From a virus (lineage: Duplodnaviria; Caudoviricetes): a stretch of DNA of 53,049 nt. Position 1 is the stretch's first letter, and every line of letters starts with the position of its first letter. Below, piece after piece: positions 38,740-53,049 of this stretch. A program made the translations under genes and the position numbers. The notes beneath the pieces were generated by a model, which saw only the letters and a program-made list of their open reading frames with translations, made no database searches and was not told the origin of the DNA. The stretch lies in the IMG/VR virus record IMGVR_UViG_3300042197_000954, positions 1-53,049 of that record. One strand, written 5' to 3'.

Positions 38740-39000
38740 TTATATAAATATCGATTTTCCCCAAAAATTTCCGGAAATTTTTTTTTCAGAAATAGGGGGT
38801 GAAGTCAACTTTTCCAAAATTTTCCGGAAAAATTTTATTTTAAATTTACGAAAAAAAGTCGAATTTTCGGAAAAAAACTGGAAAAATTTCTGCAAAGGTA
38901 TTGTCCCCCCTATTTAGACCCCCCTTTTTACCTTATATAAGGGGGGATACGGGAGGGGGGAGGGGGTACACCCCCCTACACCCCTCTATGGTAGGGGGGT
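38740..39000. other. non-coding strand-switch region with palindromes and G/C tracts (candidate genome end or origin)
   Basis: AAAAATTTCCGGAAATTTTT 38763-38782, TTTTCCGGAAAA 38820-38831, CCTTATATAAGG 38931-38942, four G runs 38941-38966. Confidence 0.5.
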
Positions 39001-39055
39001 CCAGACAAAATTCAAAACCCCTCGACGGGGGTTGGTAACTTTTTTCTGTCAATGG

Positions 39056-39085
39056 TTGTATGTAATGATTTTCTTATTATATTTG
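39056..39085 (+). promoter_or_regulatory. Bacteroidota primary-sigma promoter (-33 TTG, 19 nt, -7 TATATTTG); first of about 22 copies
   Basis: TTG 39056, TATATTTG 39078; further -7 boxes near 39565, 40852, 41602, 42404, 42781, 43040, 43664, 44348, 44725, 45268, 45638, 46299, 47093, 47714, 48314, 48864, 49424, 51216, 52029, 52533. Confidence 0.85.
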
Positions 39086-39093
39086 TATTCACT

Positions 39094-39123
39094 AAAACCC
39101 TCACCGAAAGGTGGGGGTTTTTT
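39094..39123 (+). terminator. intrinsic terminator with GAAA tetraloop; first of about 16 near-identical copies
   Basis: aaaaccctcacc-gaaa-ggtgggggtttttt; compensatory variant cccctacc-gaaa-ggtagggg at 39877-39907. Confidence 0.9.
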
Positions 39124-39260
39124 ATTTAAGAGGAACTCCTCAGGATATCCCGGTAGGAAATTTGTCTGGAATTTCAGATGAATACCTCAGGAGTCGGACC
39201 GGTCTGACTATTGGAATTTTGTCTGGAAAAATGGTGTATGACGTTTGCCATAATGTGAGA

Positions 39261-39452
39261 AATTCCAGACAAAATTCACCATCAAAAAAAAACAAGGATG
39301 GTGAGGGAAATTCCAGACAAAATTCACCATCAAAAAAAAACAAGGATGGTGAGGGAAATTCCAGACAAAATTCACCATCAAAAAAAAACAAGGTTGGTAA
39401 GGGAAATTCCAGACAAAATTCACCATCAAAAAAAAACAAGGATGGTGAGGGA
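39261..39452. repeat. 48-bp tandem repeat x4
   Basis: aattccagacaaaattcaccatcaaaaaaaaacaaggatggtgaggga at 39261, 39309, 39357, 39405. Confidence 0.95.
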
Positions 39453-39505
39453 AATCCAGACAAATTTTCAAACCCCTGACAGGTGGTTCACCTGTTGTTA
39501 CAAAG

Positions 39506-39525
39506 TGTGGATAACTTGTGGAAAA
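39506..39525 (-). promoter_or_regulatory. tandem DnaA boxes (TTATCCACA + TTTTCCACA on minus strand); repeated upstream of many cassettes
   Basis: TGTGGATAA at 39506, 41543, 42991, 44289, 44666, 45209, 46240, 47655, 51970. Confidence 0.7.
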
Positions 39526-39594
39526 CTTTTTTGTGTCAATGGTTGTATGTAATGATTTTATTATTATATTTGTATTCACTTAAACCAATTTATT

Positions 39595-39867
39595 ATGTCA
39601 AAATTCATTTTTGTTCACCCATTTGTTCCAAGTGGAACACATGGTAATGAAGGGACTTTCTTTGAGAAAGACCTGACACCCTCGGAAGAGGAAACTATCT
39701 ACTCAATTTTGGGAATCAACCCAAAAGAAGAGATGGTAATGGTGTACGATGGTAGTACCCCAATTTATCACCCAAAGAGTAGGTGTGAGTGGGATGGGGA
39801 AAACGAAGAGTTGGTGTGGAAGGAGAAGGATGAGAAGTTGAGAAACCTACAAAGTTGGGTGGTGTAA
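39595..39867 (+). CDS. cassette ORF, hypothetical
   Basis: ATG after the promoter leader aaaccaatttatt; terminator follows. Confidence 0.75.
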   Translation: MSKFIFVHPFVPSGTHGNEGTFFEKDLTPSEEETIYSILGINPKEEMVMVYDGSTPIYHPKSRCEWDGENEELVWKEKDEKLRNLQSWVV

Positions 39868-50090: not shown

Positions 50091-50101
50091 ATTTTTAAAC
50101 A

Positions 50102-51037
50102 ATGGAAACTAGAACACAATTTTCAAAACAAGAAGTCTGGTCAATCGACAAATTTTTATCCGTTCCTGTATATGAAAAAAACAGAACTATTGAACCCCGA
50201 CTTAAACGAATTACCAAACTTTTAAAAGATAACAAAAATCAAAGATTATTTGAAGTATCGGTTGGTGTTGCAACAAAAGATTTTGATGAAACATTATCTC
50301 GATACAAAAAGGATGATGTTTTTTGTCTGGATGGTAATTGTAGAAGTGAAGTTTGGAAAAGAAACCCATCATTATGTCCAGAAAATGTTTTGGTCAATGT
50401 TTATTCATTAGATACAAAAGAGAAATCGGACGAAACTTATTTCACTTTTGATAATTCATCAGCCAGTGAAACTTCCAGTGATAAAATGAGTGGTTTACTT
50501 CGTGAGAAAAACTATTCAGCAAAAAGTGATGTTATACGATATGGTAGAATGAACACTTTTCTTAAAAAATCAACTCGTTATTCTTGTGATAAAGATGGGG
50601 TGTATTTAATGAACTCATCGATTGAGAAAAAGTTAAATTTTCATTGGGATGAAGTTACATTTCTCGACCAATATCAACAAATTTTCAACAAAAGTGTAAA
50701 GGGGTCTTGTAATGTATATGCCGCATTATTGATGGTTGGTAAAAAGTATGGTGTTACTCACCCTCGTTTCAAAGTGTTACTTGATAACTATTGTAATGAA
50801 GAAACCGAAGTGAACAACAAAGATTATGTTGATGGTGTTACTTATGTTTTCAATACCTTGTATGGAAAACACAAAGAAATTTGGGGTAACAACGCATTTA
50901 GTGTTAATTGTTCACCTTTATTTGGAAAAATTTTGTTTTCTTTTGAAACATTTGTGTTGGGTAATTTTATTGAAAAAAACAACAAGAAAAAAGATAGTTT
51001 TTATATGGACTATTATCGGGATTTTTATTTCAGTTAA
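50102..51037 (+). CDS. protein with ParB/Srx-like (DGxxR) N-terminal domain
   Basis: FCLDGNCRSEVW, NR motif upstream, YFTFDN downstream. Confidence 0.45.
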   Translation: METRTQFSKQEVWSIDKFLSVPVYEKNRTIEPRLKRITKLLKDNKNQRLFEVSVGVATKDFDETLSRYKKDDVFCLDGNCRSEVWKRNPSLCPENVLVNVYSLDTKEKSDETYFTFDNSSASETSSDKMSGLLREKNYSAKSDVIRYGRMNTFLKKSTRYSCDKDGVYLMNSSIEKKLNFHWDEVTFLDQYQQIFNKSVKGSCNVYAALLMVGKKYGVTHPRFKVLLDNYCNEETEVNNKDYVDGVTYVFNTLYGKHKEIWGNNAFSVNCSPLFGKILFSFETFVLGNFIEKNNKKKDSFYMDYYRDFYFS

Positions 51038-51243
51038 ACTCACCCCCTTTAATGAACCCTCACCGAATGGTGGGGGTTTATTGTTTGAGGAGAATCCCTC
51101 AGAGCTACCGGGATGTTGGATTTTGTCTGGATAATTCCAGATAAAATTGGAGTCGGAATTCCGGCGTACCAAAATTGTTTTTTCAATGAATGGTTGTGTG
51201 TAATGATTTTCTTCTTATCTTTGTATCGTTAAACCAATAAGAT

Positions 51244-51792
51244 ATGGAAAATACTTTAATCATTCATCCAAAGGATAAAACAACACAATTTTTGGATATT
51301 GTCTATAATCCAATTCCAAACAAAACTATCATAACAGGTGGTCTTTATAGGAAGGAAATCCACGAGTTAATTGAGGGACACGATAGAGTTATGATGTGTG
51401 GACACGGAAGTCCTGGCGGTTTGTTTTCCGTTGGACGATTTCCAAGTAATAACTTTTATGTCATCGACGATAAGTCAGTTGGTGTTCTCAAAAAGAAAAA
51501 CAATTCGATTTTTATCTGGTGTAATGCCGATAAATTTGTGAGAAACCACAACCTTAAAGGTTTCTTTTCGGGAATGTTTATCTCTGAACTTTACGAGGCT
51601 ACATATTGTGGTGTAAATTCAAACCAAGATGATGTTGATGAAAGTAATTACGGATTTTGTAATCTTTTATCCGAATGTATCAACGAACCGATTGAGAATA
51701 TGTATCAAAGTATAATTGAGGGGTATGGTAAAATTGCAAAAAGAAACTCCGTCGCAAAGTATAATCACGACCGATTGTATTTATTGGTTTAA
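51244..51792 (+). CDS. putative clan CD (caspase/gingipain-fold) cysteine peptidase-like protein
   Basis: MMCGHGSPGGL and IFIWCNA His/Cys motifs after hydrophobic strands. Confidence 0.5.
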   Translation: MENTLIIHPKDKTTQFLDIVYNPIPNKTIITGGLYRKEIHELIEGHDRVMMCGHGSPGGLFSVGRFPSNNFYVIDDKSVGVLKKKNNSIFIWCNADKFVRNHNLKGFFSGMFISELYEATYCGVNSNQDDVDESNYGFCNLLSECINEPIENMYQSIIEGYGKIAKRNSVAKYNHDRLYLLV

Positions 51793-51815
51793 CATTTGAA
51801 AGGGTAGGTCGTGAT

Positions 51816-51848
51816 TGGGGATACTCACAAGGTATCCCCATTTTTTTT
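51816..51848 (+). terminator. intrinsic terminator (different family)
   Basis: tggggatac...gtatcccca followed by T8. Confidence 0.8.
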
Positions 51849-52061
51849 GCTAAAAATTATAGGGGCCCAGCAAGCGGCCCGTGATTTTGTCTGGAAATTT
51901 GTATTACATTCGTGGGGAATTCCAGACAAAATTCAAAACCCCTCAGGTGGTTCACCCGTTGTTATAAAATGTGGATAACTTGTGGAAAACTTTTTTATAG
52001 AAAAGGTTGTATGTAATGATTTTCTTATTATATTTGTATCGTTAAACTAAACCCCTTAATT

Positions 52062-52481
52062 ATAGCATCCTATACACTTGACCCCGAAGACCCAAGACAA
52101 GATGACAACTTGGGTAAAATGTTATGTTTTCACCGAAGATACTCTTTGGGAGATAAACACGGCTACAAATCCTATGACTATAATAGTTGGGAGGAAATGA
52201 AGTCCCATATTATTAAAGACAACGATGTATTAGTTATCTTACCACTATATCTATACGACCACTCTGGAATTACAATGAATACCACTGGATTCGGTTGTCC
52301 CTGGGATAGCGGACAAGTTGGTTGGATTTTTGCAACAAAGAAAGATGTTAGACAATGGTTTAACCTTAAAAAGATAACTAAACCTTATATTGATAAGGTA
52401 AGGGAAATTCTTTTGGGAGAAGTGAAGATGTATGACCGATACTTAACTGGTGAACACGAGTACGAGGAGATAGAAGACTAG
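52062..52481 (+). CDS. cassette ORF, hypothetical phage protein; ATA at expected start
   Basis: DPEDPRQDDNLGKMLCFHRRYSLGD, LYLYDHSGIT, CPWDSGQVGWI. Confidence 0.7.
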   Translation: MASYTLDPEDPRQDDNLGKMLCFHRRYSLGDKHGYKSYDYNSWEEMKSHIIKDNDVLVILPLYLYDHSGITMNTTGFGCPWDSGQVGWIFATKKDVRQWFNLKKITKPYIDKVREILLGEVKMYDRYLTGEHEYEEIED

Positions 52482-52562
52482 CCCGTGTTTTTGTCTGGAA
52501 AAAAAAGATTTGGATAATTAAAATTTTGTTTCTACATTTGTATTCAACTAAACCCATATTAT

Positions 52563-52778
52563 ATGTTCATTAAACTCACATTTTATCCGTCAAATAAACC
52601 CACGATACTCAATGTTTCGTCAATAAAATCAATTTACCAAGTTTATAACAAACAAGGTGGTGAATACAACACAAAAATTGAGTTCAATAATGGTTCTTAT
52701 GTTAATGTATATGAAACACTTGATGAAATTCTAATGGTTTTACCAAGCGAGAAAAGGGAGTGGGGGTTAAGTGAATGA
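52563..52778 (+). CDS. FlbD-like small protein
   Basis: MFIKLT...ILNVSSIKSI...TKIEFNNGSYVNVYETLDEI. Confidence 0.5.
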   Translation: MFIKLTFYPSNKPTILNVSSIKSIYQVYNKQGGEYNTKIEFNNGSYVNVYETLDEILMVLPSEKREWGLSE

Positions 52779-53049
52779 TTGAACAATTTTCCACTCCGAG
52801 AAACCCTCACCGAAAGGTGGGGGTTTTTTATTTCACCAATTTGAGCTTGGGCAACATGTTTGTCATTTTGTCTGGAAAAGGGTGTATGACATTCCAGACA
52901 AAATCCCCTGGCGTGTTTTTGCTGTAAATCACATTCCAGACAAAATCCCCTGGCGCGTTTTCGCTGTAAATTTTTTAGCGCGTTTTTGCTAGTTATCCCA
53001 CATTTTGTCTGGAAAAGGATGTATGACATTCCAGACAAAATGTGGGGTT

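Follow-up and report, generated by a model that had tools for sequence, protein, structure and literature searches.

In T4-type phages, the early promoter and stem-loop elements known as PeSLs are described as strong early promoters and stem-loop terminators repeated in front of ORFans, where recombination leads to insertions, deletions, replacements and mini-circles (PMC2839356, PMC4122927). Here, we analyse an array of small gene cassettes at positions 38999-53049 of the IMG/VR virus record IMGVR_UViG_3300042197_000954, a linear sequence of 53,049 bp which we used whole (hereafter the window; 31.2% GC, CheckV completeness 17%). We consider it likely that this array is a hyperplastic early region of the PeSL type, equipped with Bacteroidota signals and shuffled by homologous recombination.

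Other systems resemble the array in part. Integrons combine the integrase IntI, an attI site and cassettes with attC sites, which are conserved in structure and free in sequence; the cassettes are promoterless and share a common promoter. The host-takeover module of SPO1, located in the terminal redundancy of this unrelated Bacillus phage, groups small early genes into numerous short operons, whose strong host-sigma promoters and whose terminators are nearly identical; we know of no shuffling platform or inverted-repeat element in it. Cluster A mycobacteriophages carry stoperators, tens of asymmetric intergenic sites of 12-14 bp that occur genome-wide, are oriented with transcription and are bound by the immunity repressor of these temperate phages.

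The array contains 22 promoter units and 23 small open reading frames (ORFs), all on the plus strand, and runs off the contig end; the related contigs L087, L043 and L046 extend beyond the window's last cassettes. A unit is built from an intrinsic terminator, a 12-bp inverted repeat (IR), a DnaA-box-like pair (in nine units), a Bacteroidota-type promoter and a TAAACC leader, and every arm, promoter and DnaA-like box of the window falls within 38999-53049. The control regions, 250-400 bp long, are near-copies of one another. This agrees with the original prediction of about 22 cassettes repeating on one strand from 39.0 kb to the contig end. The grammar was also said to be fixed, and the parts are indeed shared, but the DnaA-like boxes are present in nine units only, the units ending at 44574, 48715 and 52481 lack a terminator, and one unit is empty.

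Exact copies of the IR-arm 12-mer TTTTGTCTGGAA occur 19 times in forward and 16 times in reverse orientation, all within 39217-53040, while the reversed pattern, used as a control, does not occur. Allowing up to one mismatch raises the count to 55, where 1.05 would be expected and the largest shuffle gave 4; all are at 38999-53040, and two of them (50321 and 51314) lie inside ORFs. In several units, one left arm is accompanied by two to four right arms in 48- or 70-bp tandem repeats. The predicted promoters have the form TTG-N19-TAnnTTTG: the 30-nt pattern TTGTNNGTAATNNNTTTNNNNNTATNTTTG matches 20 times (0.05 expected), always on the plus strand and between 39056 and 52036, and two more units (42729 and 52489) have a second promoter class in which an IR arm is followed by TTTG-N19-TACATTTG. 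The Bacteroidetes primary-sigma consensus is given as TTTG at -33 and TANNTTTG at -7, together with the lack of a Shine-Dalgarno (SD) sequence (PMC6847099, PMC9723704). E. coli-type sigma-70 promoters are found in the array below chance (28 vs 47.3 expected), and none of the start codons in the window has an SD sequence. The consensus terminator hairpin CCCTCACCGAAAGGTGGGGG with its T-run is present in 15 copies; a hairpin scan predicted 18 terminator-like sites, one of them weak and the other 17 strong GC-rich hairpins with T-runs on the plus strand, and a second scan gave 30 sites against 13.2 expected. Hairpins are predicted 120-250 nt ahead of the promoter, neither within nor adjoining it. 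Searches of the window with Rfam (gathering thresholds) and ARAGORN gave no matches.

The DnaA-box-like sequence TGTGGATAA, which we take to be a perfect DnaA-box 9-mer matching TTATCCACA, has nine copies (1.31 expected), all on the plus strand and within the array, and each is followed 2 nt on by TGTGGAAAA (cTTGTGGAAAA follows every copy). The copies are not independent, since they descend from duplication, and none occurs in the stretch of the more distant G006 clade that we read; the pairs seem particular to the window's own clade, and binding of DnaA to the pairs is possible. TAAAC is found within 35 nt upstream of the start in 19 of the 23 array ORFs, compared with 4/40 ORFs elsewhere, and these 19 include the second genes of two operons. 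The longer motif TTAAACC lies about 15-16 nt before array starts (39580-52570), including those of the internal genes 41125 and 50102, and so looks like a translation-initiation signal of early genes rather than just a transcript 5' end. Such a signal is of interest in a lineage that encodes its own ribosomal protein bS21. The array ORFs are coding, as judged from mismatches to related loci of 12.6%, 9.2% and 24.8% at codon positions 1, 2 and 3.

The window's closest relative in IMG/VR was assembled three times (G001-G003), and all three contigs end inside the array, as the window does. G002 shares 70-87% nucleotide identity with the window across more than 20 kb. Nine cassettes of the window have homologues, at 39-84% amino acid identity, in a more distant clade represented by contigs of 115-288 kb; it includes G006, a 288-kb contig (92% complete) that encodes a UvsX-like recombinase (phrog_97, 1.3e-16). 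A capsid gene of the gp23 family is present in each of G002, G006 and G007 (E 7e-66 to 5e-65; 6.8e-66 in G002), as is a bS21 gene above the cut-off. The window fragment itself has neither a gp23 nor a UvsX-like gene, and its link to T4 is the nucleotide identity to G002. The bS21-encoding phages of Chen et al. 2022 are described as having genomes of 293-331 kb, 31.0-33.7% GC and predicted Bacteroidetes hosts (PMC9723584). The phages in that article agree with ours in genome size, GC content, a bS21 gene next to the one for the capsid and a freshwater origin, and we assign the window, by sequence, to an uncultured lineage of ~300-kb, T4-like, bS21-encoding jumbo phages of freshwater Bacteroidota. 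In the GenBank phage collection, megablast with the window's positions 20-39 kb and with the array gave no DNA match, protein searches with the products of 22661-24259 and 51244-51792 gave distant matches only (Salicola phage SCTP-2, 29.8%; a fecal contig, 32.1%), and no cultured relative was found. We also found no description of such an array in the literature that we searched; the main text of PMC9723584, supplements aside, does not contain the words "promoter", "intergenic" or "early".

To compare arrays among relatives, we scanned metagenomes with the paired arm motif, which gave at least 118 stretches, 43 of them with at least three arms and the promoter/terminator grammar. These 43 contigs, the window and G002 make up 45 oriented loci, over which cassette content and order vary widely. 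The arrangement is thus not invariant among relatives, and the view of the array as a plastic platform of self-expressing cassettes is borne out. Locus L123 is collinear with 44.3-52.1 kb of the window (6.5 kb at 93.5% identity) with unit 11 absent, the crossover lying in a 46-nt promoter/leader repeat (45244-45289 = 45614-45659). L153 lacks 41433-42906, with the crossover in a 58-nt IR. Homologues of 48902 and of 49458/50102 stand in reverse relative order in L087 and L055, the homologue of 42442 precedes that of 41125 in G002, and the G006 clade shares nine cassette families yet has them in another order. Alternative orders recur in contigs of different metagenomes (e.g. L037/L141/L148 and L087/L129/L046/L043/L060). 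We also compared Logan contigs of four runs, from four studies labelled freshwater or lake water. A joint of the non-adjacent positions 39579 and 44361 was found in contigs of three studies, which is weak evidence given its 90% likeness and short sides; many Logan joints have sides below 30 nt or were placed at less than 95% likeness, and may derive from relatives.

Breakpoints were mapped with high-scoring segment pairs no shorter than 300 nt and no less than 85% identical, and 20 events gave 17 distinct junction intervals. These fall as follows:
IR only: 5/17
terminator through IR: 2/17
IR through promoter: 2/17
between two IR pairs: 2/17 (one event seen twice)
promoter/leader only: 3/17
ORF end without a repeat: 2/17
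left array boundary, in the TTTCCGGAAA region: 1/17

Fourteen of the 17 intervals lie within terminator, IR or promoter/leader repeats. The original prediction had the blocks switching at the IR; nearly all breakpoints are indeed in repeated intergenic DNA, but crossovers also occur in the promoter/leader, at ORF ends and across the terminator. Such a scatter is expected if homologous tracts at dispersed places recombine. The longest of these tracts are the IR plus spacer (~58 nt) and the promoter plus leader (~50 nt), and with five junctions in the IR only and three in the promoter only, nothing points to a mechanism specific to the IR.

At the level of blocks, we compared 120 junctions, scoring the share of pairs with at least 85% identity:
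close upstream gene, different downstream gene (n = 51): terminator 40%, pre-IR block 20%, spacer 28%, post-IR block 8%, promoter 39%
different upstream gene, close downstream gene (n = 66): terminator 16%, pre-IR block 3%, spacer 52%, post-IR block 27%, promoter 77%
background pairs (n = 6434): terminator 8%, pre-IR block 1%, spacer 24%, post-IR block 2%, promoter 17%

The terminator tends to travel with the preceding gene and the promoter with the following gene, and the switch usually lies in the interval separating the two, in many cases close to the IR; these counts of junctions are low and not independent, many loci being close kin. In individual cases homology stops at every block boundary, and pre-IR and post-IR blocks are inherited almost independently. 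Within the window, the four variable-block alleles of the original prediction are where it placed them and have different partners: pre1 (45081, 45479, 46938) has three different post-IR partners, post3 (44251, 45171, 46202) has three different pre-IR partners, and spacer 4 occurs at 42295, 46981 and 47598.

Among the known systems, PeSLs come closest, and this earlier comparison is apt because close relatives of the window carry a T4-type gp23. Like PeSLs, the array belongs to a T4-type phage and combines a host-consensus early promoter and a stem-loop with small ORFans of unknown function, clustered in a plastic region; relatives differ by indels and replacements with crossovers in the repeated motifs, and homologous recombination is the proposed mechanism in both. 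The differences are also considerable. The array's signals are of the Bacteroidota type (-33/-7, no SD) where those of PeSLs are sigma-70, and its module is longer (250-400 bp) and more regular, with the terminator well upstream of the promoter, whereas a PeSL is a compact promoter/stem-loop. It adds the 12-bp IR arms with GTATGACA and, in nine units, the DnaA-box-like pair, and forms one contiguous run on one strand, of 22 units here and ~37 in G006. Mini-circles are part of the PeSL description, while the array is known from contigs alone. With the SPO1 module it shares a block of small, presumably early genes behind near-identical promoters and terminators.

The IR is one of the two parts of the unit that are not described for PeSLs, and we compared its conservation with that of the other elements. 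Mismatch rates between the window's array and orthologous loci are:
-33 box: 0%
-7 box: 0.8%
terminators: 3.1%
GTATGACA motif: 3.5%
IR arms: 3.7%
ORFs: 9.5%
DnaA-like pair: 10.9% (middling)
promoter spacers: 14.1%
other intergenic DNA: 16.2%

Judged by this conservation, the arms together with GTATGACA are an additional cis element under selection. As single-stranded DNA the IR is predicted to fold into a 12-14-bp hairpin of -8 to -14 kcal/mol (z-scores -3.5 to -6.4). Across 244 left/right arm pairs, the variants at inner positions comprise 71 that break the pairing, 27 wobbles and a single compensated change, and with one compensated variant in 99 there is no covariation; we therefore rejected a hairpin or attC reading of the IR. 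Lone arms and runs of right arms are common. Both clades have a promoter class in which a lone arm ends 32-33 nt upstream of the -7 box, at about -56 to -45, the region where activators and UP elements sit. Arms of the G006 clade read TTTGKTTGGC/GCCAAMCAAA; paired arms there usually differ at the K position, and most units are single-armed. Despite the different arm sequence, the GTATGACAC adjoining the left arm is kept in both clades. In G006 the arms are confined to the array, a single block of ~35 kb with ~37 promoters at 210-245 kb; one stretch of this clade (L015 2300-7100) shows the same grammar, with mostly single arms just upstream of the -33 element.

Whether the arms are a putative protein-binding site tied to early-promoter control, with a probably phage-encoded protein, we regard as about evenly balanced. 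Stoperators are a precedent for a phage regulator with many dispersed short intergenic sites, although the array's sites occur in both orientations and only in the early array, in a phage where no integrase was found. We make no claim of helical phasing: spacers are 2, 13-14, 22-25 or 32-35 nt and arms lie 32-33, 76-79 or 100 nt from the -7 box, but these spacings are a few alleles spread by duplication. A host repeat or host regulon was rejected as the source of the paired IR, as the paired motif has just 49 scattered single matches, and no arrays, in ~596 Gb of prokaryote sequence (~186,000 genomes).

Under the reading that we favour, each small gene or gene pair would be a transcription unit of its own, with a strong promoter for the Bacteroidota host sigma-A, an SD-less TAAACC leader and an intrinsic terminator. 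General homologous recombination, by a UvsX-type pathway, would cross over between the near-copy control regions, within one genome as well as between co-infecting relatives, and so delete, duplicate, swap and reorder cassettes. The arms and GTATGACA would most likely be bound by a phage-encoded factor acting on the early promoters, while the IR would also, incidentally, be one of the three longest homology tracts where crossovers occur. We infer both the recombination pathway and the binding at the arms. An integron-like system, in which cassettes would be excised and inserted at the IR by a site-specific recombinase not yet recognised, in the way that IntI uses attC, would account for an ordered one-strand array of small, mostly unrelated cassettes with an imperfect inverted repeat of variable centre at nearly every boundary, whose content differs between relatives. 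The predicted single-stranded hairpin, the almost independent assortment of the flanking blocks and the involvement of the IR in 9-11 of the 17 junctions fit it too. We nevertheless think it very unlikely, as three defining integron features fail: no integrase was found, each cassette has its own promoter and terminator, and the arms are conserved in sequence without compensation. Crossovers are not confined to the repeat (three are restricted to the promoter/leader and two are at the ends of ORFs), and lone arms and tandem right arms do not suit it either. As the original prediction had noted, no recombinase is visible in the window: PF00589, PF00239 and PF01797 (tyrosine, serine and Y1/HUH recombinases) had no match there, nor in G002 or G006-G009, while the control genomes were matched (14/14 for PF00589). 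A small chance remains with the IR as a cruciform, extruded by the negative supercoiling upstream of strong promoters and cut by a junction-resolving nuclease, so that it would be a recombination hot spot without a dedicated recombinase. It always lies upstream of a strong promoter, its predicted hairpins are stable and it is the most frequent single junction site, but no covariation keeps the stem, the paired arms of the G006 clade usually differ at one position, most G006 units are single-armed, and no EndoVII-family match was found, in a search without a positive control.

A selfish miniature element of the REPIN or MITE type, spread through intergenic regions without a role for the phage, would also have short inverted arms, variable spacers and many copies. 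We find this extremely improbable: the RAYT/IS200-type Y1 transposase (PF01797) has no match in five records, the copies are not dispersed as REP sequences are but confined to the array, at set places in the unit, their arms are as conserved as the terminators, and the prokaryote genomes hold only the scattered single matches. We give next to no credence to the shuffling being an artefact of short-read mis-joins. The window and G001-G003 do all end inside the array, and Logan contigs break at every intergenic repeat, but independent contigs repeat the window's order over long stretches (L123 as above; L038, L085, L153 and L053), the alternative orders and the 39579 to 44361 joint recur across metagenomes and studies, and the G006 array is internal to its contig. 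Several points nonetheless weigh against recombination between near-copy early units as we propose it. Promoter and terminator activity, early timing and protein-DNA contact are all read from sequence patterns, and membership in the bS21 lineage stands on the relatives rather than on genes of the window. Short-read metagenome contigs may be chimeric at repeats, where the Logan contigs of the four runs break. A preference for the IR is possible given its share of the junctions, five IR-only and three promoter-only events being too few to tell. A novel recombinase that is absent from Pfam would escape the search, and the window samples 17% of its own genome. EndoVII (PF02945) and the MotA C-terminal domain (PF09158) had no match, but equally none in the control genomes. 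Finally, circle-type joints numbered zero in X1, the probable source run, and two in run X5, in Logan contigs, where rare forms are not visible.

A more specific variant, which we consider unlikely, is that the arms and GTATGACA are recognised by a phage protein, so far unrecognised itself, that would control the early promoters and also concentrate strand exchange where cassettes meet, with the DnaA-like boxes recruiting or titrating host DnaA. If so, the array would be a dedicated, diversity-generating platform for cassette exchange in jumbo phages, a functional analogue of integrons with a new kind of enzyme. The favoured reading, PeSL-type recombination between near-copy units, would carry the idea of mobile regulatory cassettes beyond the phages of coliforms and vibrios (coliphages and vibriophages) to abundant, uncultured ~300-kb phages of freshwater Bacteroidota. 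The 12-bp arm with GTATGACA is a new cis element of strong conservation, for which a pull-down could identify the partner protein, and the array would serve as a natural catalogue of strong Bacteroidota promoters, leaders and terminators. The repeats also explain why assemblies of these phages break here.

The units of the array, all on the plus strand, are as follows:
Unit 1, 39056-39126: promoter 39056-39085 leading straight into terminator 39096-39126; ORF-less, "empty"
IR cluster, 39160-39525: left arms at 39160 and 39217; right arms at 39263, 39311, 39359 and 39407 (48-bp tandem repeats); DnaA-like pair at 39506
Unit 2, 39543-39910: promoter 39543-39572; ORF 39595-39867 (90 aa); terminator 39878-39910
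Unit 3, 39947-40535: IR 39947/39993/40063; promoter 40130-40159; ORF 40192-40485 (97 aa, phrog_21015), the first cassette of the array in relatives; terminator 40507-40535
Unit 4, 40577-41340: IR 40577, its right arm present three times in 70-bp repeats; promoter 40830-40859; operon of two genes, 40888-41112 (74 aa, phrog_1933) and 41125-41286 (53 aa); variant terminator ~41300-41340
Unit 5, 41375-42248: IR 41375/41421; DnaA-like pair 41543; promoter 41580-41609; ORF 41633-42196 (187 aa, paralogue of 46330); terminator 42218-42248
Unit 6, 42282-42697: IR 42282/42319 (25-nt spacer allele); promoter 42382-42411; ORF 42442-42630 (62 aa, DUF4314); terminator 42661-42697
Unit 6b, 42729-42871: lone left arm 42729-42740; second-class promoter with TTTG at 42758 and TACATTTG at 42781-42788; ~50 nt without an ORF; terminator 42841-42871
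Unit 7, 42908-43494: IR 42908/42953; DnaA-like pair 42991; promoter 43018-43047; ORF 43084-43443 (119 aa, weak DUF3846 match); terminator 43464-43494
Unit 8, 43533-44154: IR 43533/43579; promoter 43642-43671; ORF 43732-44067 (111 aa); terminator 44122-44154
Unit 9, 44192-44574: IR 44192/44237; DnaA-like pair 44289; promoter 44326-44355; ORF 44377-44574 (65 aa); no terminator
Unit 10, 44592-45068: IR 44592/44637; DnaA-like pair 44676; promoter 44703-44732; ORF 44755-45021 (88 aa); terminator 45042-45068
Unit 11, 45111-45469: IR 45111/45157; DnaA-like pair 45209; promoter 45246-45275; ORF 45299-45430 (43 aa); terminator 45437-45469
Unit 12, 45504-46015: IR 45504/45550; promoter 45616-45645; ORF 45674-45967 (97 aa, paralogue of 47774); terminator 45985-46015
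Unit 13, 46051-46927: IR 46051/46096 with an extra right arm at 46188; DnaA-like pair 46240; promoter 46277-46306; ORF 46330-46875 (181 aa); terminator 46897-46927
Unit 14, 46968-47555: IR 46968/47005; promoter 47071-47100; ORF 47131-47505 (124 aa); terminator 47525-47555
Unit 15, 47585-48123: IR 47585/47622; DnaA-like pair 47655; promoter 47692-47721; ORF ending at 48073 and starting at 47774, or at 47747/47723; terminator 48095-48123
Unit 16, 48237-48715: single right arm 48237; promoter 48292-48321; two ORFs that overlap, 48343-48501 (52 aa) and 48461-48715 (84 aa); terminator absent
Unit 17, 48729-49272: IR 48729/48755 (14-nt spacer); promoter 48842-48871; ORF 48902-49219 (105 aa); terminator 49242-49272
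Unit 18, 49308-51085: IR 49308/49334; promoter 49402-49431; two-gene operon of 49458-50090 (210 aa) and 50102-51037 (311 aa, phrog_2615), the largest cassette; terminator 51055-51085
Unit 19, 51121-51847: IR 51121/51135 (2-nt spacer); promoter 51194-51223; ORF 51244-51792 (182 aa); terminator 51816-51847
Unit 20, 51885-52481: IR 51885/51920; DnaA-like pair 51970; promoter 52007-52036; ORF to 52481 (phrog_6186)
Unit 21, 52489-52832: single left arm 52489-52500, whose end is 32 nt before the -7 box; TTTG at 52509 and TACATTTG at 52533-52540; ORF 52563-52778 (71 aa); terminator 52802-52832
Unit 22, 52866-53049, cut by the contig end: IR 52866/52892/52934 and IR 53003/53029

The encoded proteins range from 43 to 311 aa. 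The cargo was described as mostly unrelated, which holds apart from two pairs of paralogues (41633 with 46330, and 45674 with 47774). Twenty of the 23 cargo ORFs were scanned, and two matched a Pfam DUF and six a PHROG of unknown function. A search of the ten largest cargo proteins with PADLOC and NCBIfam gave one weak PADLOC match (PDC-M04B, E 5e-4) and nothing else. In the ESM Atlas, the products of 50102-51037 and 51244-51792 fall in viral hypothetical clusters, the nearest named one being DUF6551 (0.95), which is a lead only; the 311-aa product (phrog_2615) is the one nearest to DUF6551 clusters, with no family match in support. By eye, the 210-aa product of 49458-50090 has a D...E-x-K pattern suggestive of a PD-(D/E)xK nuclease, again with no supporting family match. 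Several dozen such small, presumably early genes are a pool for host-takeover and anti-defence functions, and the usual place to look for them.

In unit 20, ATA stands at 52062 where six relatives have an ATG start (ttaattATGGCATCCTAT); the frame is open and homologous, and the next in-frame ATG (52119) is 19 codons downstream. Either the start codon has mutated, or translation begins at a codon other than ATG, or the ATA is an error of sequencing. Two promoter-terminator units are ORF-less, with ~10 nt (39056-39126) and ~50 nt (42729-42871) between the two signals and no Rfam match, and a comparable unit is present in G002 (L033 ~4439). Such units may encode small RNAs or be what is left of lost cassettes. 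At the left boundary of the array (38711-38998), four TTTCCGGAAA-type palindromes are followed by long runs of G and C (gggggg...cccccc), and ~170 bp of this region are kept at two places of G002 (L033 12963-13131 and 15374-15538). Its role may be that of an origin, of a packaging site or of a control region for divergent transcription.

The stretch from 28.5 to 38.8 kb, next to the array, has no counterpart in G002. It includes a tandem family of ~8 paralogous genes (130-356 aa) on the minus strand at 29150-36387, each preceded by near-identical upstream sequence (tatttaNagataatggtggaaNagttt.ttaaa.tATG), and the last paralogue (35764-36387) has head-to-tail internal repeats. Sugar-modification genes lie on the minus strand at 2658-5063 and 11330-13907. 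They encode an 801-aa protein with methyltransferase, HtrL/YibB and GT2 domains, and two adjacent paralogues of a GlcNAc-transferase family (PF11397, phrog_24687) whose listed ORFs overlap by ~125 nt.

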